Made by a program: the position numbers and the translations under genes. Shown piece after piece: positions 907-13,269 of a stretch of DNA of 44,376 bases (the first letter of the stretch is position 1; every line of letters begins with the position of its first letter). Source of the DNA: a virus. Taxonomy: Duplodnaviria > Heunggongvirae > Uroviricota > Caudoviricetes. Location: the IMG/VR virus record IMGVR_UViG_2541047881_000004, positions 1 to 44,376 of that record; one strand, 5' to 3'. The notes under the pieces were generated by a model. That model worked only from the letters and a program-made list of their open reading frames with translations. It ran no database searches and was not told the DNA's origin.

Positions 907-917
907 GGGCAAATCCA
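1..917 (+). mobile_element. IS2 insertion sequence, 3' portion (window starts inside the element); right terminal repeat ends at 917
   Basis: InsD-type transposase ORF followed by terminal sequence ...GGTGTCTGGAAATATAGGGGCAAATCCA, which matches the IS2 right end as I recall it. Confidence 0.85.
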
Positions 918-1477
918 CATATATTGAAGATAGGTATAAATATCTAACAAGCCTAAAGGGTTCCGTAATAGCAATCCGTATAAAACATTACAGCACCCTA
1001 TCCAAACAGATTATACCGTCTACTGATAACATTCATGCTGAGTTAAAGTTGCTTCTTTCAGAAGTTGCGGTGCGAGGTGATAACGATTATTACCGAATGG
1101 AAGTGGAAGAGTTAATAAAGTTGTTCGAGGGGAATGTTAAAGAGGCACATCTCAAGGATGAAGCTGACGTATTTTTAAGTAAACTACATCCAATTGCAGT
1201 AGAGATTAGATATAATCTTCAGGAAATGAATATTGAGGATTTAGCAACTAAGCATGGCGTGTTGATTTCAACACTTCCGAAAAATGCCCTGCATTACGTT
1301 CTTCAGAAAATGTTTACTTGGCTCCACTCTGATAGATATGACCCAATGGGTGGCTTTTACTTGGACAAGTTAAATGAATATTCAGGCGGGCGATACAATT
1401 TTTGTTCTGAGGATGATGACAGTACAACTCTATTGAAGCTCCGGATGATGTTGCATTGGTATCATCAACAAAAATAG
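918..1477 (+). pseudogene. AT-rich ORF of unknown function whose reading frame runs straight out of the IS2 end; probably a gene remnant disrupted at its 5' end by IS2
   Basis: ORF 881..1477 is open across the IS2 boundary at 917; first ATG outside IS2 is at 1097 and has no RBS. Confidence 0.3.
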
Positions 1478-1710
1478 GCTTAGCCACGAAAACAAGCAAT
1501 ACAGTTGGAAGTTCGTGTGACCTATGCGCTAGGTATTCTGAGACGACAGTGTGACCTGCTCCCTGTTGATTAACATAGGCTGACACTAGCAACGTCCTCT
1601 ACTGGCACATAGCAGCCCCAGAGACAGTGGTGTAAAGTCATGGAGGGTCGGTGGGAGGATATTCAGTTTCATTCATGCCGAAATACGGTAAAATCTATAA
1701 TAGATGGAAA

Positions 1711-1989
1711 TCATTCAATACTCGCACTAAAGTCCACCATCCAGCCGCAGCAAGTTCTTGCATACGACGTGTCTGCGGTTTTATATAATCCCAGCCGGTC
1801 CAGTTTCCAGACAATCAACTCATCTCCACTTTTCATCACCGTAATTAATTCCTTTAACACAGGGCGATTAGCTGTTCTGCCACTGGCATATTCTTCATAA
1901 ATTCGCTCACAGCCAGCTGACTCAAGTGCAAGACGTTGCAACTCTGTATCCTGATGATTTGTTGATACACGAACATACCCGTAAATCAT
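1711..1989 (-). pseudogene. pin: Truncated serine recombinase / DNA invertase (Pin/Gin/Hin family); only about the first 68 residues are invertase-like
   Basis: N-terminus MIYGYVRVSTNHQDTELQRLALESAGCE...DELIVWKLDRLG has the catalytic Ser motif of small invertases; similarity ends near nt 1786 and the ORF stops at 92 aa, so the C-terminal HTH domain is missing. Confidence 0.6.
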
Positions 1990-1994
1990 GAGTG

Positions 1995-2021
1995 CTTCTC
2001 CTGTTGTAAAAACAGGAGAAG
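1995..2021. repeat. 27-bp near-perfect palindrome CTTCTCCTGTTGTAAAAACAGGAGAAG directly upstream of the invertase start codon
   Basis: 13-bp arms with one mismatch around a central A; contains the AGGAG RBS of pin on the minus strand; candidate recombination site remnant or regulatory hairpin. Confidence 0.35.
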
Positions 2022-2056
2022 AGGCGAAATATCACCTGATTCAGAAAAATATTTGA

Positions 2057-2530
2057 AAGGTTGGTTTGGGAGAAACGATAAATAAAGCCTCCGGAGCTAT
2101 GCAGAAATCGGCTAATGGAGCTGATATTTCTGATGTATCAGCCTTCCGAAATGCGCTCCAGTTAGGGATCGCCGCAACACGAGATGTTGGAGCAGATAAT
2201 GCCTCGAAGTTACTGGATTTAGACAGCTTCAGGTCAATGATGTCAGGGAATGGCTACATCTACATTCCATGCATTGCGACGACAGGAAACCCGGTGAAAC
2301 TTATGTTGCAGTGGGGAACGGTGGCAACACAAAAGGGAGCTGATGCTGGATATGCCTTACCATTTGCTTTTCCCTATGCAGGCTTATTTGCGACCGGAAA
2401 CCGTGGAACATCTGGCTACAATGCCGCGATGAATGTGCGTATTGCCAGCAGAACGCATATCAGTATTCAGAACTGGTCGCCATCCGGAGAGGGCACCGAA
2501 GATTGTTGTTTTATCGCGCTGGGGTATTAA
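2057..2530 (+). other. Alternative side-tail-fibre C-terminal cassette, promoterless and oriented opposite to stf
   Basis: ORF 2066..2530; like stf it ends in ...GY and shows loose similarity to the stf C-terminal region; upstream in-frame stop at 2054-2056; arrangement typical of Mu G / e14 P invertible segments. Confidence 0.55.
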
Positions 2531-2532
2531 GA

Positions 2533-2943
2533 ATGAATAAATTTTATAAAGGCTCTTTCTATCCGAAAGCACTAAAAGAGGTATATATCAGCGCCGGTTC
2601 ATGGCCTGAAAATGGCGTTGATGTTGATGATGAAACAATGGCAATTTACACAGGCGTAGCGCCACAAGGCAAAACGCTGGGGGCTGATAAAAATGGTAAT
2701 CCTGCGTGGATTGATATCCCGCCACTCTCCGCTGAACAACAGATTATTCAGGCTGAACAGAAAAGAACGGTATTGCGTTCTATGGCTGATAAGGAAATAG
2801 CCTGGAGACAGGATGCTTTTGATGCGGAAATCGCGACGGCAGAAGAAACCGCCGCGTTATCTGAATGGAAAAAATACCGGGTCTTGCTGATGCGCGTTGA
2901 TACAGCAAAACCCGTATGGCCTGTCAATCCGCAGGATATTTAA
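2533..2943 (+). CDS. tfa: Tail fibre assembly chaperone (Tfa) belonging to the alternative cassette
   Basis: 136 aa from ATG 2533; C-terminus ...[27 protein letters not shown] matches the conserved Tfa C-terminal motif (lambda Tfa ...[22 protein letters not shown]...WP). Confidence 0.7.
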   Translation: [136 protein letters not shown]

Positions 2944-3157
2944 CGGGGGCGTTGTAGGTGGTGACATATTCAAGCAGTTCTGTTGGATATGTCACCGTTG
3001 CTGCATCTCGCTCTACGTTAAATGTATCCGCTCCCCAGATAACACACTCCCTCAAAAATGCCTCCACCTCTGGCGAGACTTCAACCGCATCATCAGGTCG
3101 CTCTTGTTCAGAAACATAAAAACCAACGGTCGTTGGGCTGAAATACATATTCTCCAT
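2924..3157 (-). CDS. Short Tfa-like ORF directly downstream of stf; probably a truncated tail fibre assembly gene
   Basis: 77 aa, MENMYFSPTTVGFYVSEQERPDDAVEVSPE... resembles the N-terminal motif of small Tfa chaperones, but the conserved C-terminal region is absent; its 3' end overlaps the 3' end of the plus-strand tfa. Confidence 0.4.
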   Translation of the reverse strand: MENMYFSPTTVGFYVSEQERPDDAVEVSPEVEAFLRECVIWGADTFNVERDAATVTYPTELLEYVTTYNAPVKYPAD

Positions 3158-3159
3158 AT

Positions 3160-6030
3160 TTAGTATCCTATTGCTTCAAAATGCAAAGTCGGAATTTCGC
3201 CGAGATTGGGTGTCGTATACGACACAGTGAATCGCGTTCTTGATACGTCAGTGCCAGAATCAGTATCGCGATGCGTTGCCAGTGATTTCCCAGCCATTGA
3301 TGACTGGGTCGAAAAGCTGTAACTCGCTAGTGTTGCCAGCGTTGCTATTTGTGCATTTGGGAATTGTCTGGGGAAATTAACCCTGTAGTAATGGGTGTAG
3401 TACAGCACTCCACCAAGAGTAATTGCGTTGAAATTACCAACAGGCGTCAGTGTCACAGTACCAACCTGTCGAATCATACCATTTGGGAGAATATCCCAGG
3501 CAGTTTGTCCGTTTCGCGACATACCAAATGCGGACATGTCCGGGAGTTGATTATTACCGGTTCCGACATTACGTTTTGCCGCTTCTCCCAATTGAAGGTA
3601 TGCGAGAAGACCAGCTACATCCTTTCCACTCAAATTAGTCAGCGTATTGTCCAGCGGTTGTTTGCCCGCCAGTGCGCTCTGTACTTCGCTTTTGCTGTAG
3701 GCATCCAGATCTTTAGGCGTAAGCGTAATATCCTTCGTGCCGTCAAACGGAACGCCGTTGATATTCCGTGCAGTCTGTAGTTTTGTGGCAGTTGCAGCAT
3801 TACCAGTGGTGTTCTGATTACCCGTAGTGTTTACACCTGGAAGGTTAATATTTGCAGAACCGTCGAAAACAACTCCACCGATAGATCTTGCCGTCTGCAA
3901 TTTCGTGGCTGTAGCAGCATTTCCTGAAAGACTTGAAATAAATGGATGTGAACAGTAATAACCTCGTCCATTTTTAAAGTCCAAAATTATCTGTGCATTC
4001 GTACTTTCTGATAAAGGATCAGTTGCCCCCCACTTATAAGTGGTTTGACCAACTGCATAATCAGCCGTTGGAACAATCACATTTAATCCTTCCTCAGCAA
4101 AAATATGGATAGGGAATGCTCTTGTCTCAACGTAAAATACACTACACAAATCATCATCTTTCACGCTTGCGATAATCGAGTGTATAGCTCGCTCAGCAGT
4201 AGAATATATTGAGAAAAAACCAGCCGCATATGAATCGCGATCAGACCAACCGCCAGGCATAACAAACCCATTAAATTCACAATTATTCATGGCGTATCCG
4301 CCAGCTGAGGAATAAGTGGTGATAACCACTCGTGAGGCTAATTCATCTGCGCCACCACCAGTTCGGCGAAAGACTACAGGATACCACTTACCGCTTACTG
4401 CATTTGCAGGAGCAGAGAAAGTGTATTTTCGCATCCCCTTTTTCTTATCCACTTCACCTTTGCTGTAAACATTAATGTTACTCAGGAAGCGGCCCTTGTC
4501 TGGGATATCAGCGCCATTCTGATTCTTCGCCAATCGGCTATTCGCATTGTCATTCGCAGCTTTAACTGCCTTTGGAGTTGCGGCCAGCGATTCACTGGTG
4601 CTATCAACAGCACTGCTAAGTTTCACAACACCTTTAGTTGTAAGGCTTGCGTCTTCCATCGCAACTGCACCGGCAATCTCTTCAGCACGATCAGCAGCAG
4701 CTTCCGCACGGGTCGCAGCGGATTCAGCAGCAGTTTTGCTCTGAGATGCTGCCGTCGCACTGCCTGCCGCCTCTGTTGCTTTCGTGGATGCCGTCGTGGC
4801 GCTGCCCTTCGCTGCTGACGCCTGTCTGGTCGCCTCATCTTTTGAAGCAGACGCAGATGATGCCGATGACGCTGCCGAACTGGCGGACGATGCGGCTGCC
4901 GTTTTTGAGGATTCTGCACGGGTTTCCGACGCTTTCGCATTCGTTTCGGATGTCTTCGCTGTGGAAGCAGACCTCGCTGCTGCGCTGGCCTGTACAGCGG
5001 CTTCGCCAGCCTTCGTTGTGGCTGTTGAAGCGGACGATGCAGCACTTTCTGCCGATTTTCCGGCGGCGGTGGCACTGGCTGAGGCCTGCCCGGCACTTGT
5101 TGACGCGGCACTGGCAGACGACGCAGCCGCTGTTTTTGAGCCTGCCGCAGCTGAGGCACTCTGTCCCGCTGCCGTTTCAGAAGCCTTGGCGTTCGTCTCG
5201 GACGTTTTTGCCGCCTTCGCAGAATTTGCTGTCGCCGTTGCCGAGGAAGCTGCGCTGCTGGCGCTCGAGGCTGCGCTCGTTTCTGATGATTTTGCCGCCT
5301 CTTTTGAAGCCGACGCATCCCGGGCTGAGGTGGCAGCTTCTGACGCTTTCGTGGTTGCGGTGGATGCTGAAGTGGCTGCTGATTGTTGTGACGCTGCCGC
5401 ATTCGTTTCTGACGTTTTTGCCGCAGCGGCACTGGTGGCCGCCGCGCTTTTTGAGGACTCTGCAGCGGCAGCACTTTTTGATGCTTCAGTGGCCTTTGCT
5501 GATGCCGTTCCTGCGCTGGAAGACGCTGACTGAGCCGACGAAGCGGCCTGTCCGGCTGACGTGCTGGCTGCGCGTGCTGAGCCTGCAGCATCAGTCGCAT
5601 GGGTTGCCGCCTCACGGGCAGATGTGCCGGCATCGCCGGCTGACTTCTTCGCGGCTGCCGTGTTCTGTGCCACTGCGGACGCGTTACGCGCCACCTCTTC
5701 CACCATCAGTTCAAAACGGCGCAGTGCCTCTGGCCGGACATCATCCTCCGTCATTGCACCGAGGAAATCATTCAGTGTGCCCGGCTTTGAGTCCTCATAT
5801 ACGGTGATAATCCCGGCGTGTGACGGCGGGAATCCCTCCACCAACAGACTGACGCTGTACTGACCATACTCGACGTCCATTGTGTAACGCCCGGCTTCAT
5901 CCGGGTTTTCTGAGGCCACTGTGTTCACCACCACCGTGGTGCTGTTGCGCCTGGCCTTTAGCTGAATGGTGCAGTTTTGTATCGGCTTACCTGCGCCATC
6001 TTTCAGTACACCTGAAATCCGTACTGCCAT
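3160..6030 (-). CDS. stf: Side tail fibre protein Stf with long Ala/Ser/Thr-rich repeat region
   Basis: 956 aa; N-terminus MAVRISGVLKDGAGKPIQNCTIQLKARRNSTTVVVNTV... close to lambda Stf; internal low-complexity repeats (AKTSETNAKASET..., TSAGQASSA...). Confidence 0.9.
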   Translation of the reverse strand: MAVRISGVLKDGAGKPIQNCTIQLKARRNSTTVVVNTVASENPDEAGRYTMDVEYGQYSVSLLVEGFPPSHAGIITVYEDSKPGTLNDFLGAMTEDDVRPEALRRFELMVEEVARNASAVAQNTAAAKKSAGDAGTSAREAATHATDAAGSARAASTSAGQAASSAQSASSSAGTASAKATEASKSAAAAESSKSAAATSAAAAKTSETNAAASQQSAATSASTATTKASEAATSARDASASKEAAKSSETSAASSASSAASSATATANSAKAAKTSETNAKASETAAGQSASAAAGSKTAAASSASAASTSAGQASASATAAGKSAESAASSASTATTKAGEAAVQASAAARSASTAKTSETNAKASETRAESSKTAAASSASSAASSASSASASKDEATRQASAAKGSATTASTKATEAAGSATAASQSKTAAESAATRAEAAADRAEEIAGAVAMEDASLTTKGVVKLSSAVDSTSESLAATPKAVKAANDNANSRLAKNQNGADIPDKGRFLSNINVYSKGEVDKKKGMRKYTFSAPANAVSGKWYPVVFRRTGGGADELASRVVITTYSSAGGYAMNNCEFNGFVMPGGWSDRDSYAAGFFSIYSTAERAIHSIIASVKDDDLCSVFYVETRAFPIHIFAEEGLNVIVPTADYAVGQTTYKWGATDPLSESTNAQIILDFKNGRGYYCSHPFISSLSGNAATATKLQTARSIGGVVFDGSANINLPGVNTTGNQNTTGNAATATKLQTARNINGVPFDGTKDITLTPKDLDAYSKSEVQSALAGKQPLDNTLTNLSGKDVAGLLAYLQLGEAAKRNVGTGNNQLPDMSAFGMSRNGQTAWDILPNGMIRQVGTVTLTPVGNFNAITLGGVLYYTHYYRVNFPRQFPNAQIATLATLASYSFSTQSSMAGKSLATHRDTDSGTDVSRTRFTVSYTTPNLGEIPTLHFEAIGY

Positions 6031-6094: not shown

Positions 6095-6694
6095 TCAGAA
6101 TTTATAACCAACACCCACGATGAAACCGTCAGTGCGCCAGTCGCCACTGCCGGAGCCTTCATAAGCAATATCAATGGCCACGGATTCGATCGGGTTAAAC
6201 TGCACGCCAGCTCCCCACGCCAGAGACGTGTTGCTGTGGCGACCGTCATCACTTCCGGTCAGCACATCGTGCGTTTTCCCCTTGTTGTCAGTTACGCGGA
6301 GATAATCCCCGGAGAACGTCGAAACACGGCTGTAAGCCACACCTGCCATCGCATAAGCACTGAACCATTCATTCACGCGTACAGATGGCCCCGCCATCAT
6401 GCTGAACCAGCGGTTACGCACTGAATCTTCATGCCAGCGGGTATCGCTGTAATGCGTTTTTTGCTCATCTTTGGCATTGGCATAACTGAATGACGTCACC
6501 AGCCCCAGCGTGTCCGTAAATTCATAACGGTATTTCACGTTAATGCCCTTCAGGTCATCACTGCCTGGCATATCAGTATGGGCCTGAAGATACCCGGCGC
6601 TTAGTGTGGACTGATGCTCTGCTGCGCTCGCTGGCGTACCAGCGGCAACCAGCCAGACTACTGCGGACAGAATAACAGCACATAATTTACGCAT
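6095..6694 (-). CDS. lom: Lom-family outer membrane protein (Ail/OmpX/PagC beta-barrel family)
   Basis: 199 aa with signal peptide; C-terminus ...IAYEGSGSGDWRTDGFIVGVGYKF as in lambda Lom. Confidence 0.85.
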   Translation of the reverse strand: MRKLCAVILSAVVWLVAAGTPASAAEHQSTLSAGYLQAHTDMPGSDDLKGINVKYRYEFTDTLGLVTSFSYANAKDEQKTHYSDTRWHEDSVRNRWFSMMAGPSVRVNEWFSAYAMAGVAYSRVSTFSGDYLRVTDNKGKTHDVLTGSDDGRHSNTSLAWGAGVQFNPIESVAIDIAYEGSGSGDWRTDGFIVGVGYKF

Positions 6695-6760: not shown

Positions 6761-9700
6761 TCAGCTGATACTGATGCCTGCGGTGGCTTTCTTCATCACC
6801 ACAACCAGCAAATCGCTGATACTTGCTGTGGGATACCAGCCATTTACCCACCATGCTGATACCGAAAACTCCAGTGTCATTACGCCACTGCCTGCAGGCA
6901 TATCAATAACACCCGTGTAAATCAGAGTATTATCCAGAGCCGTTCGGTTATAAATTTCAGCCCCGTTTTTCTTCACTATCAGGCGGCATGACGAATAAGT
7001 ATCGCTATTCTCCCGTTCATGTCTGGCACCGCTGAAAGCCACCGCTGGAATAACAATTTGCCGGTCAAACGGCTGATCGTCATAAACCCTGACGGTAATG
7101 GTCCCTGATGGCCACCGTTCCGGTGCACGGGAGTCACGGGGGAAAGCTTTGCCCACTGTTTTAACGAGATCGCCTTCAATCTGGTTCGCGGACAGTTTTC
7201 CCAGAACCCGGCAGTTCTCGTTAATCGTGACGTTGTTGAGCGTCCCGGAGTTCGCATTCACGTTACCGCTGATATCGGCATTTTTTGCCGTCAGCCGCCC
7301 GTCCGGTGTCAGGGAAAATGCCGGAGGATTACCGCCGCTGGTAATGGTGGGAGCCGTCAGATATTTCAGGAACACTTCATTCATAAATATCTGATCGCCC
7401 TGACCAACAAACATCGGCTTTGTGTTGCCATTCGCAGGATTAATCATCGCAATCCTGTCCGCCGCCAGCAGCACCTGACTCTGCATACCGTCAGGGGTAT
7501 TCTCAATACCGGCACCAATACCCGCGATATAAAGGCGTCCGTCCTGCATCTGCTGCAGCTTCACAGCCCACATGCTGTTCAGGTTATTATTTGTATCAAC
7601 CTGAACCTTCTGTATCTGCTGAATTGCCGCACTCTGGTCTTCCAGTTTCTTATTGACGGTCTGCGTGATTTCATTGCTGACATCCGTAATGGACGTCCTG
7701 ATTTCAGCCAGGTCAGGCGCAAGCTGACCGTTATCAATCTGCGTCCACAGCTCCTGAGCCAGATGGCTTTTCCCTATCTCTCCTTTGAAAAAATCCAGAT
7801 AGCCGGATGCATCATCACTCGGCTGGCCAACAGCCTCCACAAATGCCGATTTGCCAACGGTGTTCACACTGCGGATGTAAAAATAATAATCATGGCCCGG
7901 TTTGATATTGATACTGGCGGCTATCCAGTACAGCGCCGTGCCAAGATAGCGGGCTGTGGTTTCAACCTGCCTGATATCGGTAATCCGCGTTTCCGAGAAC
8001 CAGAACTCAAACTGTACCGTCGGATCATAAACCGCAAGATGCGGCGTGGCAGTTATCTGAAAATAGCCCGGCGTCAGCTCAATCCGCGACGGCGCTGCCG
8101 GTGCGGCAATCCGGAACGATACCGACGCCGGATCGCCCTGCTGCCCCCACGCATTTACTGCCCGGACTGTCAGCCTGTAGTTCCCCAGCGCCAGTTGCCT
8201 GAAGCGGTATGTGGTTTCCGTCGTCCTGGCCGTGCTGACCAGCCGCTCACTGCCGTCGTCCGCTGCCACGGTCAGACGGAGCAGGAAGCTCACGCCCTTC
8301 ACCACCTTCGGCGTGTCCCAGCGCGCCAGCACCTGGTATTCCCCGCTGTCTGCGGTGACTTCGGCGGTCAGGTGCTGCACCGCTGGCGGCGTGACACCAT
8401 TCACCGTGCCGCTCTGGTCGCCGTCAAAGTGCGCCCCGTTATCCACGATGGCCTCTTTTTCCGGTACATGCTGCACGGCAGTGATGGCATACGTGCCGTC
8501 GTCGTTCTCACGGATACTCACGCAGCGGAACAGGCGCTGGCGCAGCGTCGGCAGCTTCAGCCCCCACACGCTGTATTCAGCAACACCGTCAGGAACACGG
8601 CTCACTTTTACCTTCACGCCGTCGGTGACGGACTGAACCTCCACGCTGACCGGATTGCCACTTCCGTCAACCAGGCTTATCAGCGTGGTACCGGAGGATG
8701 GCAGCGTGATTTCACGGTCGAGCGTCAGCGTCCGGGTCTGGCTGTTCACCGCCAGCACGCGCCCGCCGGTGCTGATACCGGCATAGTCATCATCGCAGAT
8801 TTCAATGACATCGCCCGGCACATGGCGAAGCCCTTCTGCGCCCACGCTGAAATCCACGGTCTGCGTTTCCAGCAGTTCCGTTTTAATCAGCCACAGCCCG
8901 GCGCGGTGTGCCTGCCCCCGGCTGGTACAGCCAAAGGCATCCATCTTCGTAACATTACGACCGTAACGGGCAATGGCCTGCGTATCTTCAACAAGCTCTG
9001 TCGCCGTCTCCCAGCCGTTATCCGGGTCAATCCAGTTCACCTCAACGGCATTATGGCGGTCCTTCAGGGCGCTGAAGCTGTAGCGGAACGGCGCGCCATC
9101 ATCCGGCATCACCACATTACTGCGGTTATAGGTCCACACCTTATCCGACGGTCGGTCCTGCACGAACGTCAGCGTCTGCCCGTTCCATACCGGCATACAG
9201 CGCATCGCCGAGCAGAAATCGCTGAGCACATCCCACGCCTTACGTTGTGTGGTCAGCCAGGCATTACAGGTGATGCGCGGCTCCGTGCCGCCAAAACCGT
9301 CCGGCACCGACTGGTCGCAGTACTGGCCGATGACATACAGCGCCCATTTATCCACATCTGCCGCACCAAGACGTTTCCCCATGCCGTAGCGCGGATGGGT
9401 CAGCATATCCCACAGACACCAGGCCATGTTGTTGCTGTATGCTGGCTTAAACGTTCCATCCCAGATACCGCTGTATTGCCGCGTCTGCGGGTTATAGTTC
9501 GACGGCACCTGCAGAATACGCCCGCGAAGATGATAATTACGGCTCACCTGCTGGCTGCCGAACTGCTCCGAATCCACCTGTACGCCGACCAGTGCCGTGT
9601 TCGGGTAGCACTGTTTCACATCGATGATTTCGGTGTATGACGACCAGAGCGTTTTGTTCTGCAGCTGGTCTGTGGTGCTGTCCGGCGTCATCCTGCGCAT

Positions 9701-10240
9701 CCGGATACTGAACGGGCGCGGCGGCAGGTTATCCACCACCACCGAGGCCAGATACTGTGAAGTGGTTTTACCCTTAATGGTGATGTCTTTTTCCGTCACC
9801 CAGCCACCGTTACGTTGTATCTGAACCAGCAGGCGGACTTCCGATGGATTCCTGTCCCCCTTTGAGGTGGTTTCCACCAGTGCCTGCACGCCGAAGGTAA
9901 AGCGCAGACGGTCGATGTTTGCAGACGTGATGGTCCGGGTGATCGGCGTGTCATATTTCACTTCCGTACCCAGCACCGTCTCGGATCCGGAGGATTCAAA
10001 TCCCTCCGGCGGTGTCTGCTCCTGCTCACCGGCCCGGAACACCACCGTGACGCCGGAGATATTGGTATTCCCCTCACTGTCCAGCACCGGTGTACTGTTC
10101 AGCAGCACGCTTTTTAATCCATCCACCGGACCTTCTATCGGCCCTTCGCTGATGGCATCGATCACACTCAGTAACTGCGTGGATTTCAGGTTGTCCTTCG
10201 CTTCGCGCGGGGTATGCCCCTTACTGCTGCCTTTACCCAT
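6761..10240 (-). CDS. J: Tail tip host-specificity protein J
   Basis: 1159 aa; lambda J-like over its whole length as recalled. Confidence 0.95.
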
Positions 10241-11661: not shown

Positions 11662-12597
11662 TTAGTAGTGATGCAGTGAAGGAGGTAATTCTTTGTTCTT
11701 AAGCCTTACCCATGCGGAAAGATTCGTTGGTCCGTCTGGCTCATTAATATCAACATCTCGTGTGTGATTGATTAAAACGTCTCTCGCCATTCCAATAACA
11801 TACGAGAACTCATGGCCGTAGTCGTAGCACCTGCCAAAATAGTTTGATTGAATTTGCTTTAGCGCCGGATACAGTTCGCGGAATAATGCCTGTGAGCGGT
11901 TGGCATAATCCCATAACCATACAAGGCTGTTTGCTTCTTTTGCAGAAAGCTCGTTGGTTTTCTTCTCTTGTTTTCCGATGAATTCGCCTTCAAGTGGAAT
12001 ACGAGCAGCAAGTGACAGTGCTTCGGTAAACTGCTCCTCACTGATTTCTTTGTACGAACATCCAAAATGGGATTTCAGTGACGACCACATGGTGATCATC
12101 GCCTTCGCCTGTTTTTCTTTTGGCAGAGACTGACCGCGACTCATGACGAGTTGTTTAATAGCTTCCTGCTGTTCAGTGGTGATTTTACCCGGCAACGCCT
12201 TTTTAGCTTTGCGCGGGTTAACCACATGGCCTTTAGTCCAGTAGTCATGCAGCACAGTAAAGCATTCTTCCTGGTACTGAATCAGTTTATCGCGGATGTC
12301 AGCACGAACTTTCTCAGGGTTGATGCTGAACAGCCATCCATTTAACTTCTTCAAAGGAAGGCAGAGTAGCTTACGAAGCTTCCCATCAGCAGCAACCATA
12401 TTCATATGAATACAGTTGAACTTATCTAGTTGTTTCATAAGTTTTTGTTGCTGAGTACCCCAGCTCATTCCGAGGTTTTCAACGATTGGCTTCATCGCAA
12501 CATATGCAACTCCTGCAGCCATGGCGGTGATAATTTGCTGACCGTTGAAGGATACGTAAGAGGTGCTCACTGCTTCTAAAATTGCTATACTATTCAT
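11662..12597 (-). CDS. ant: Antirepressor (P22 Ant-like)
   Basis: 312 aa from ATG 12597 ([10 protein letters not shown]...); sits downstream of an arc-like gene as in the P22 immI operon; longest ORF extends to 12720 but those codons overlap arc (alternative start 12678). Confidence 0.7.
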
Positions 12598-12669
12598 ATC
12601 AGTTTTCTCGTAGTTAACTGGTAATTTAGAAGCCTCAATGGTTGCAGCCATTGAGGCTTCGCTGTTTTT
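12598..12669 (+). ncRNA. sar: Candidate sar-like antisense RNA covering the ant translation-initiation region
   Basis: Plus-strand extended -10 element TGCTATACT (12583-12591) inside the 5' end of ant; about 72 nt downstream a 13-bp perfect stem (12629-12641 / 12648-12660, GAAGCCTCAATGG...CCATTGAGGCTTC) followed by GCTGTTTTT; by analogy with P22 sar. Confidence 0.35.
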
Positions 12670-12841
12670 AGCGACCATTCGCCACCTCTTCCCTAACACC
12701 TTTTGCCAGCAAACGAACAATTGCAGAGTTCAGAGATATACAGTCCATTTCCGCCAGGCGGCGAAGGTCTTCATTCAGCCGTGATGGAAGGCGAAGGTTG
12801 AGTTTGATATTTTTGCGCTCAGTGAAAAGTGTATCTTGCAT
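12668..12841 (-). CDS. arc: Arc-like ribbon-helix-helix repressor
   Basis: 57-aa ORF below the track size cutoff, translated by hand: [57 protein letters not shown]; matches the Arc/Mnt pattern NLR.P...L....AE....S.NS.I; GGAG RBS 8 nt upstream. Confidence 0.65.
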
Positions 12842-12948
12842 TATCTAATCTCCTTTATGTGGTGCCAAAGTGACGCCATGAAGGCCATAATGCCACCATT
12901 GAAATCGTATGGCAATATGGCACCATGATTTTTTTTGAGAGATTTGCA
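12842..12948. promoter_or_regulatory. Divergent promoter/operator region between arc-ant and mnt
   Basis: On the minus strand TTGCCA-17 nt-CATTAT reads toward arc; repeated ATGGTG(C/G)CA motifs are operator candidates. Confidence 0.4.
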
Positions 12949-13269
12949 ATGGCCGAAAAACAAGTAAAAGACTACGACAAGTTCAACCTCCGTTTTCCTG
13001 ACGGAATGCGAGATGCTATAGCTGAACGAGCCAAACGAAACGGGCGCTCTATGAACTCAGAGATTGTTCAGATACTGGAAGATGCCTTGAATGCAGAAAA
13101 TACACTCGGGGAAATAGCAGATAAAATTAACAGCGTCTCGGTTCCGCTAAATGTTGATGCGCTAGTTCAACTTCAAGCCCAGGTTATCGCCATGCAAAAA
13201 GAAATACAGGAAAAGTTCAGAGAGCAGAACGAAAAGTTGAGAGAACTGCTAAACAAAAAACCCACCTGA
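12949..13269 (+). CDS. mnt: Mnt-like ribbon-helix-helix repressor
   Basis: 106 aa from ATG 12949; ...FNLRFPDGMRDAIAERAKRNGRSMNSEIVQILEDAL closely matches P22 Mnt (...NGRSMNSELLQIVQDAL); transcribed divergently from arc-ant. Confidence 0.75.
   Translation: MAEKQVKDYDKFNLRFPDGMRDAIAERAKRNGRSMNSEIVQILEDALNAENTLGEIADKINSVSVPLNVDALVQLQAQVIAMQKEIQEKFREQNEKLRELLNKKPT

Follow-up and report, generated by a model that had tools for sequence, protein, structure and literature searches.

E. coli prophages are well known for invertible tail-fibre segments and for crippled pin genes. The locus described here, at the tail-operon end of a lambdoid (lambda-like) E. coli prophage, raises the question of whether such a switch has decayed or has been orphaned by the loss of its own enzyme. 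The prophage lies in a 44,376-nt stretch of viral DNA (hereafter, the window) and looks complete, having repressor, replication, Q, lysis, terminase, head, and tail genes. We found that window positions 1789-3608 very probably (a probability of roughly 0.8) represent a Din-family (Gin/Pin/Cin/Hin-type) host-range switch whose own invertase is dead, whose other parts are intact, and whose inversion in trans is still possible. Because everything except the invertase is intact, we regard the switch as orphaned, not decayed. It is an ordinary switch of the Mu/P1/e14 type, that is, a known kind of system, and its sequence is already in GenBank (in phage phi458 and in several chromosomes), though undescribed.

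Organization of the locus

The initial annotation had proposed an invertible tail-fibre switch of the Mu G/e14 P type, and the crossover sites, the cassettes, and the in-frame inversion bear this out. All of its open reading frames are present where it had placed them. Its extent was too short, however: it missed a second crossover site inside stf (3583-3608), which carries the unit to about 1789-3608. The features are as follows.

About 1789-3608: the switch unit
1789-1989, minus strand: pin', codons 1-67 of a Din-family serine invertase gene, a 5' remnant
1900-1968: putative Fis-dependent recombinational enhancer within the surviving 5' portion of pin', assigned from its position only
1995-2021, minus strand: pin leader hairpin, with a perfect 11-bp stem and a 5-nt loop
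2049-2074: crossover site A, ATATTTGAAAGG TT GGTTTGGGAGAA on the plus strand, equivalent to TTCTCCCAAACC AA CCTTTCAAATAT on the minus strand
2057-2530, plus strand: tip 2, the silent alternative fibre-tip cassette, 157 codons, in frame with the crossover site
2533-2943, plus strand: tfa, a classical tail-fibre assembly gene, 136 aa, cognate to tip 2 and silent in the present orientation
2924-3157, minus strand: mini-Tfa gene, 77 aa, cognate to tip 1, expressed downstream of stf and overlapping the 3' end of tfa by 20 nt
3160-6030, minus strand: stf, intact, 956 aa, ending in ...AIGY
3160-3595, minus strand: variable part of stf (tip 1), ~145 codons, now fused to the constant part
3583-3608: crossover site B, inside stf at codons LLAYLQLGE, TTCTCCCAATTG AA GGTATGCGAGAA
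3596-6030, minus strand: constant part of stf (PF08400, E=1.2e-71)

The segment between the two inverted 26-bp crossover sites is 1,534 bp long and holds two convergent modules. Module 1 comprises tip 1 and the 77-residue mini-Tfa, and module 2 comprises tip 2 and the classical 136-residue Tfa. In the present orientation, the J-lom-stf operon yields Stf with tip 1 and then mini-Tfa, and tip 2 and its Tfa are silent, having neither promoter nor start. Recombination at the AA core would place tip 2 in frame, giving a 967-residue Stf followed by the 136-residue Tfa; this fusion would probably have a different receptor specificity. The deletion after invertase codon 67 has abolished self-flipping and locked the element on tip 1, and a related invertase of another prophage, acting in trans, could still invert the segment.

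This block shares homology with P2-like, P1-like, and other myovirus loci up to 3601-3608, within site B. Because the homology stops inside the second crossover site, the layout is not the product of chance.

Crossover sites, cassettes, and inversion

The initial annotation had suggested a search for 26-bp crossover sites at both ends of the segment, and they were found at 2049-2074 and 3583-3608. The two sites are inverted relative to each other, with imperfect 12-bp half-sites and the same 2-bp core (AA/TT), which is AA in both when read from the TTCTCCCAA half. Site A has the same sequence as in two loci with intact invertases (L016 and L017) and shares its form with e14 pix and Mu gix. Site B has the same sequence as in L006, and its half-sites are reciprocally exchanged in L014.

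The plus-strand cassette, tip 2, begins directly after an in-frame TGA (2054-2056) and ends in ...ALGY. It matches the fibre-tip domain Gp53-like_C (PF21882) at 35.8 bits against a cutoff of 24.9. That it is an intact alternative fibre C-terminus, as had been supposed, is borne out by its in-frame fusion to stf, both in silico and in L014. Its neighbour, the 136-residue Tfa, is a full Caudo_TAP protein (PF02413; E=2.4e-31; 109 bits against a cutoff of 22.1; profile positions 5-131 of 131) and matches phrog_188 (E=3.8e-42). Tip 1 scores 23.9 bits against Gp53-like_C, just under the cutoff of 24.9, and matches phrog_2557 (4e-23) and phrog_1396 (8e-16).

Inversion of the segment in silico produced an open, in-frame 967-residue Stf with the junction ...LLAYLGLGETINK.... 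The same fusion junction occurs in the intact 1008-residue stf of L014, a lambdoid prophage relative in E. coli strain 167. The expressed C-terminus of that Stf is identical to tip 2 at 152 of 156 residues, and the Tfa encoded there is identical to that of the window throughout (136/136). Between L006 (direct orientation) and L014 (inverted), the half-sites are reciprocally exchanged at the core, including the diagnostic TTCGCCC/TTCTCCC base; opposite orientations are also found when the P2-like L003 is compared with L015 and L037. The clean exchange of half-sites between strains identifies the 26-bp sites as real recombination points and as the boundaries of a horizontally exchanged module.

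The invertase remnant

The invertase had been described as truncated to about 68 residues, and the N-terminal third is indeed what is kept, as codons 1-67. The minus-strand ORF at 1711-1989 encodes 92 residues. Residues 1-67 match Pfam PF00239 (Resolvase; E=1.3e-18; profile positions 1-76 of 145) and the Gin structures 4M6F/3UJ3 (E~2e-19); past codon 67, with the breakpoint at 1789/1790, the frame continues into unrelated sequence. A complete invertase (catalytic domain, helix E, and C-terminal HTH) is absent beside the segment, and the missing portion includes the catalytic Arg cluster, helix E, and the DNA-binding domain. The 44-kb window holds no other invertase-like sequence by tblastn (E<=1); residues 1-67 were the only match. 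Intact invertase homologues of 182-199 residues are carried by the relatives L003, L004, L005, and L016. The last of these, an e14-like element beside mcrA, holds the intact parent of pin'; its invertase has 184 residues and is 71% identical to Mu Gin, and window positions 1790-2100 are the same as in this element except for 2 bases beside the break.

Could pin be short only because a sequencing or assembly frameshift conceals a full-length invertase? Nothing beyond the general possibility favours this explanation, and we regard its probability as negligible. No frame past codon 67 resembles an invertase in the tblastn search, and the sequence beyond the breakpoint runs at 99.9% identity into DNA that flanks the 3' end of an unrelated 379-aa gene. 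Further, the same junction is present in five independent records, namely four E. coli chromosomes (L001, L002, H3, and H4) and the plaque-forming phage phi458; this recurrence marks a deletion, not a sequencing error. The tblastn result, the alignment with L016, and the phi458 junction together refute a hidden full-length pin.

Invertase genes of this family normally carry a Fis-dependent enhancer in their 5' part, ~100 bp from one of the sites. The putative enhancer of the window (~1900-1968) occupies this position and is 100% identical to the corresponding sequence of L016, which has an intact invertase. In the hin system, the enhancer is ~100 bp from hixL (PMC3798978). The stem of the leader hairpin covers the AGGAG ribosome-binding site just 5' of the pin ATG, with a predicted RNA folding energy of -24.8 kcal/mol (z=-4.6), and other pin/gin leaders show a similar hairpin.

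The 77-residue protein

The 77-residue ORF had been called a truncated tfa. The protein does lack the conserved Tfa C-terminal motif (…W..YR..L.RVD…), as the initial annotation had observed, and neither it nor any of 25 members of its family has a Pfam match, to Caudo_TAP or otherwise, even at E<=10. Its likeness to Tfa is limited to the first ~31-40 residues, which resemble Tfa N-termini (phrog_188; L028-L033). Only the N-terminal ~31 residues match phrog_188 (E=8e-5), BLASTP against the 136-residue Tfa of the window gave E=0.2, and BFVD yielded only a weak match (E=0.03) to a 60-residue "tail fiber assembly protein" of Pantoea phage LIMEzero. Taken with the truncated invertase, these observations could point to general decay, in which the invertase and the minus-strand tfa would both be truncated remnants and the expressed fibre would have no working assembly protein.

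We consider such decay very unlikely. The gene keeps its 234-nt length beside intact invertases in related loci, and across four genera, with identity as low as 59%, members of the family still have 77-80 residues. Purifying selection on the gene is strong (dN/dS 0.085-0.098, about 0.09). AlphaFold predicts a confident structure (pLDDT 92.2, pTM 0.77). In each of 10 IMG/VR loci, and also in L008, L010, and L011, the gene comes directly after a homologous tip; in P2-like phages lacking a switch, it alone separates fibre H from sheath FI, at the position of P2 gene G. Tip 1 is 80% and 50% identical to the tips of such phages, and the identity of the small protein drops in step (74% and 59%, respectively). 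The gene is also present in the plaque-forming phages phi458 and phi456. The 77-residue ORF is thus an intact member of a conserved family; it is neither the product of a local truncation of tfa nor an indication of decay. It is the conserved partner of a widespread tip that moves among lambda-like, P2-like, P1-like, and e14-like elements, and host-range engineering or prediction from these fibres needs the gene to be carried along.

Current models hold the conserved C-terminal helical domain of Tfa responsible for fibre trimerisation. The mini-Tfa shares with lambda Tfa, Mu U, and P2 G (Caudo_TAP) a position directly after the fibre gene, but it has neither this domain nor a Pfam match. The variable N-domain of Tfa is the fibre-binding part (PMC9608196). 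We tentatively suggest, at somewhat less than even odds, that the 77-80-residue family is an undescribed minimal fibre helper: a Tfa reduced to its fibre-binding N-domain, with a fold unseen in the PDB, that may act as the chaperone and sole accessory of its Gp53-like tip. Annotation pipelines call the gene "hypothetical", and it is easily mistaken for debris.

Possible inversion in trans and alternative fates

The switch had also been judged to be frozen. This holds in cis, where the invertase is cut, but not beyond, as both sites and the 5' part of pin (the expected location of the enhancer) are intact; inversion in trans by another Din invertase would thus be possible. There is precedent for such an activity: PinQ, a Din invertase, inverts the e14 P segment in trans (PMC12529663). 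Further, because the e14-like element with an intact invertase has the same site A and the same ~190 bp at the start of pin, the switch of the window is orphaned and could flip only with an invertase supplied in trans. At least one strain houses both partners: in EM06-18-14, the orphan switch (L002) coexists with a P2-like prophage that carries the same cassettes together with an intact invertase (L037). On a secondary reading, switches that have lost their invertase persist through flipping in trans by the invertases of co-resident prophages. Because invertase-less copies keep all of the cis elements, the putative enhancer among them, the host range of a prophage in a polylysogen may depend on invertase genes at other genomic locations.

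An alternative to which we assign only slightly less than an even chance is a completely frozen relic, with no inversion in cis or in trans and with tip 2 and its tfa as neutral passengers that will decay. All six carriers of the pin' junction (the window, L001, L002, H3, H4, and phi458) share one orientation, and the inverted junction predicted with the left flank of the window found matches of only 86-88% identity, beside other invertase alleles; the lineage therefore gives no sign of continued flipping. Relaxed selection is suggested by the IS1 inserted in tip 2 of phi458 and by stf being a pseudogene in L001 and L002. The carriers may, however, be few and closely related, in which case their uniform orientation is weak evidence. 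In the window itself, tip 2, tfa, both sites, and the 5' region of pin are all intact and match functional copies elsewhere exactly or almost exactly; the cross-reaction of Din invertases (PMC12529663) and the co-residence in EM06-18-14 likewise argue against a relic.

It is improbable that the element, instead of serving prophage host range, now works for the host, with the products of the locked cassettes taken over, for instance, as a fibre-derived protein blocking other phages in the manner of e14 StfE2. StfE2 is created when PinQ inverts e14, and it blocks T2 adsorption (PMC12529663); in relatives, a hotspot for defence cargo adjoins pin, with mcrA, RnlAB, and a type II restriction-modification system. 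Expression of the silent cassette, however, is without support. Given that the prophage of the window looks complete and that its near-twin phi458 forms plaques (PMC9701743), plain phage function suffices.

Comparison with known systems

The P-segment/Pin system of e14 (E. coli K-12: pinE, stfE, tfaE, tfaP, and stfP) has its genes in the same order as our orphaned switch (invertase, silent tip, tfa, convergent helper, and expressed fibre), and its sites (TTCTCCCAAACC AA CGTTTATGAAAA and TTCTCCCAAACC AA GGTTTTCGAGAG) share the form of those in the window. In contrast to e14, the invertase of the window is cut to 67 codons, its switch is mounted on a lambda-like 956-residue Stf (the e14 fibre is short), its tips are Gp53-like_C cassettes, and one of its helpers is the 77-residue mini-Tfa, not a Caudo_TAP protein.

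The Mu G/Gin and P1 C/Cin systems also have two fibre C-termini, each with an assembly gene, that a serine invertase exchanges at 26-bp sites, and, as in the window, the constant N-terminus of the fibre is outside the segment (as annotated in Mu). P1-like plasmids carry the same cassette pair as the window, with a cix-like outer half-site (GGTATTGGATAA). The core is AA in the window but GA in Mu gix; the segment is 1.5 kb, compared with ~3 kb for Mu G; and, unlike Mu G and P1 C, the window lacks a working invertase in cis.

Escherichia phage phi458 (OP434518.1), a prophage that was induced spontaneously in the APEC strain DE458, is a siphovirus that forms its plaques on MC1061 (PMC9701743). 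It is 99.9-100% identical to window positions 917-3913, including the pin' junction, the 77-residue ORF, tfa, and tip 1. It differs from the window in the IS1 in tip 2, which corresponds to window position ~2473-2481, and in having an intact 379-aa gene where the window carries IS2; the remainder of its genome is mosaic relative to the window. In the phi458 record, the constant part of stf is annotated in pieces, and the 279-nt pin' is labelled "DNA invertase".

Anatomy of the fibre switch

The window is the tail-to-immunity portion of a lambdoid E. coli prophage, with tail, head, terminase, lysis, Q, replication and repressor genes lying rightward of stf, lom and J. Its fibre switch belongs in anatomy and mechanism to the well-known Din family, which includes e14 P, Mu G and P1 C; of the family's features, the one found missing is a functional invertase in cis. 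The initial annotation had called this region a decayed invertible switch. Its identity as a switch and the death of the invertase hold, but "decayed" is too strong, as the cis elements are intact at the level of sequence. Every ORF in that annotation was found where it had been placed.

Features of the switch and its surroundings
1-917; right part of an IS2 copy, with an rve-type transposase; terminus at 917 reads ...GGGGCAAATCCA
1711-1989, minus; 92-aa ORF containing the 5' invertase remnant (pin')
2049-2074; crossover site A, minus strand TTCTCCCAAACC AA CCTTTCAAATAT
2057-2530, plus; silent tip 2 cassette, directly after an in-frame TGA, with a Gp53-like_C fibre-tip domain and the C-terminus ...ALGY
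2533-2943, plus; tfa, full-length assembly protein of the Caudo_TAP family (E=2.4e-31)
2924-3157, minus; 77-aa ORF without a Pfam match
3160-6030, minus; stf, intact side-tail-fibre gene, 956 aa
3583-3608; crossover site B, plus strand TTCTCCCAATTG AA GGTATGCGAGAA, within stf codons LLAYLQLGE
6095-6694, minus; lom
6761-10240, minus; J

Stf carries a prophage fibre domain at its N-terminus; its C-terminus, ...AIGY, is that of the expressed, variable tip (tip 1). A repeat search pairs 2066-2082 with 3575-3591 as an inverted repeat. Sites A and B each comprise two 12-bp half-sites flanking an identical AA core, the same form found in e14 pix and Mu gix when these were extracted with the same pattern. 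Because site B lies inside coding sequence, the switch reaches into stf itself. A third half-site-like sequence, TTCTCCCAAATG GT ..., on the minus strand at 3480, was judged not to be a crossover site, given its different core and its location in conserved coding sequence. Tip 2 has another "LQLG" motif 26 codons from its start, a likeness at the protein level only, without a matching DNA site. The middle of Stf (4550-5850) is a long low-complexity region rich in Ala, Ser and Thr, and the long ORFs over it (e.g. 4623-5633, minus; 4647-5807, plus) are spurious by-products of that composition rather than genes.

Positions 1790-2100 span site A, the leader and the first 200 nt of pin, and they agree with the e14-like locus L016 (strain TUM9812, NZ_CP128926.1) at every base except two beside the break in pin. 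L016 encodes an intact 184-aa invertase with 71% identity to Mu Gin. Site B is that of the lambdoid locus L006, whose half-sites occur recombined in its sister L014. From position, an enhancer is predicted at roughly 1900-1968, within the retained pin'; its placement draws in part on the hin sequence. The Fis-dependent enhancer of Din systems is some 100 bp away from one of the crossover sites (PMC3798978).

The minus-strand pin leader (1995-2021) can fold into a hairpin with 11 perfectly paired bp and a 5-nt loop (RNA fold z=-4.6), which covers the ribosome-binding site (AGGAG) located 5 nt before the pin ATG. Alignment reveals comparable hairpins of different sequence in other pin/gin leaders, which suggests a conserved translational damping of the invertase.

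The invertase remnant

The 92-aa ORF matches the Resolvase catalytic domain at residues 2-67 only (profile positions 1-76 of 145, E=1.3e-18), and its match to Gin structures spans residues 1-67. In alignments to intact pins, the last shared codon is 67 (...KLDRLG), with the break at position 1789/1790; past this point lies the 3' flank of an unrelated 379-aa gene. When two full-length invertases were searched against the 44 kb by tblastn, residues 1-67 were recovered and nothing else invertase-like; the window holds neither a second invertase nor a displaced pin 3' fragment. The junction recurs in phage phi458, whose sequence agrees at 99.9-100% with window positions 917-3913, and in four E. 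coli chromosomes, all complete, in which PGAP labels the gene a partial pseudogene. A sequencing error is thus excluded as the cause of the short pin by the tblastn search, the alignment with L016 and the identical junction in phi458. On these comparisons, the truncation is a fixed deletion. The product lacks the remainder of the catalytic domain, helix E and the DNA-binding domain, and therefore cannot act, as the initial annotation had supposed. Phi458 is a plaque-forming siphovirus (PMC9701743) that already makes this sequence public, yet the switch has so far not been described.

Beside this pair of cassettes, pin has been cut short in no fewer than three independent events: the window's deletion truncates it at codon 67, the L006 copy is truncated at 288 nt, and IS903B truncates the L014 copy at 122 nt. 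The intact parent invertase in L016 is itself a mosaic, with residues 1-60 of a "MIYGY" type and residues 61-184 almost identical to PinE.

Inversion and exchange of the segment

Swapping the sequence between the two cores in silico yields an open 967-aa Stf with the junction ...LLAYLGLGETINK.... This predicted inverted arrangement is found in L014, a lambdoid prophage of E. coli strain 167. There, an intact 1008-aa Stf, identical at 152/156 C-terminal positions to the window's silent cassette, is followed by an identical 136-aa Tfa, while tip 1 and an identical 77-aa gene are silent and adjoin a pin remnant. L006 has the window's orientation. Across the four sites of L006 and L014, half-sites are reciprocally swapped at the AA core, and the swap carries a diagnostic base (TTCGCCC vs TTCTCCC). 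Both orientations are also seen among P2-like prophages with intact invertases (L003 vs L015 and L037). The proposal that the silent cassette is usable, being in frame if fused to stf, is borne out by the in-silico product and by the intact fusion gene of L014.

Block homology to L003, L005 (a P1-like plasmid), L004 (another myovirus-type prophage) and L001 (a lambdoid prophage carrying the pin' junction) ends at 3601-3608, inside site B. Further, the outer half of site B varies with the host phage, the P1-like plasmid version being the cix-like GGTATTGGATAA. Therefore, the invertase-plus-segment unit is a module exchanged among very different phages at the crossover site. The lambdoid prophage of L001 (NZ_CP191548.1), with an stf annotated as a pseudogene, has a P2-type outer half, GGTAATCAAGAA, at 5900-5925; it appears to have acquired the segment from a P2-like phage via crossover-site exchange.

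Din invertases can act in trans, as exemplified by PinQ of Qin, which inverts the e14 segment (PMC12529663), and strain EM06-18-14 holds both the orphan switch (L002) and a P2-like prophage, L037, that has both cassettes together with an intact invertase. Counting against ongoing flipping in the window's lineage are the single orientation in 6/6 carriers of the pin' junction and the decay near the switch in other carriers: tip 2 of phi458 contains IS1, and stf is a pseudogene in both L001 and L002. Searches for the predicted inverted junction with the window's pin flank gave only 86-88% identical matches, beside other invertase alleles. There is thus no evidence that the lineage has flipped, and the lack of a high-identity match also counts against ongoing flipping. 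For the source strain, we estimate a chance of about one in three that trans-inversion occurs to a meaningful extent.

A conserved 77-aa gene

The initial annotation took the 77-aa ORF for a truncated tfa, a reading ruled out by its constant length, its presence at switch-less P2-like loci, its dN/dS and its confident fold. The 234-nt length is unchanged where the neighbouring invertase is intact, in P2-like, P1-like, e14-like and other prophages, and homologues in Escherichia, Citrobacter, Enterobacter and Phytobacter have 77-80 residues at identities down to 59%. In switch-less P2-like phages (L008, L010, L011 and L024-L026), the gene by itself fills the interval from H (fibre) to FI (sheath), where P2 has gene G, and it always lies directly 3' of a tip homologous to tip 1. 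The identities of tip and small protein drop jointly (80% with 74%, 50% with 59%). Against these switch-less homologues, dN/dS is 0.085-0.098, indicating purifying selection, and AlphaFold returns a compact alpha/beta fold (pLDDT 92.2, pTM 0.77). IMG/VR yielded 16 loci of the family; a scan of one genome per species gave no confirmed locus, and Pfam searches with 25 members returned nothing at E<=10.

Over its first 31-40 residues, the protein is similar to Tfa N-termini (phrog_188, E=8e-5); the ~170-aa Tfa genes of high-GC P2-like phages share about 50-58% identity with it at their N-terminus. The conserved C-terminal helical domain of Tfa is missing. In classical Tfa, a variable N-domain binds the fibre and a conserved C-domain trimerises (PMC9608196). 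On the simplest reading, the 77-aa protein would be a minimal, N-domain-only helper specific for tip 1. This uncharacterised family is the one item here worth an experiment.

A 14-bp inverted repeat at 2960-2996 (93% complementary, 9-nt loop), 17 nt beyond the tfa stop, overlaps codons VTYP...EYVT towards the 3' end of the convergent 77-aa gene. It could act as a terminator between the two convergent modules or simply result from the protein sequence encoded there.

The left flank and a moron-type insertion

IS2 interrupts the 379-aa gene (918-1477), which is uninterrupted in phi458, L006 and L007. Its 3' part and downstream flank (918-1781) have 99.9% identity to other E. coli loci; the gene has no match in Pfam or PADLOC. 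In relatives, it sits amid defence-type cargo (RnlAB, type II restriction-modification, mcrA) between the prophage end and pin. The ~105 bp from the point of divergence from L001/L002 to the pin' break (1682-1789) recur in several unrelated contexts: L001/L002 have them after a DinI-like gene adjoining prfC, L006/L007 have them 3' of the 379-aa gene, and L007 has a 78% identical copy near ykgJ. This stretch appears to be a recombination joint or a repeated intergenic element.

Elsewhere, an Ant-like anti-repressor (352 aa, minus) and a divergent Arc-like regulator (114 aa, plus) at 11662-13269 interrupt the tail-gene cluster as a moron-type insertion, with K/I-like genes on one side and L-like genes on the other.
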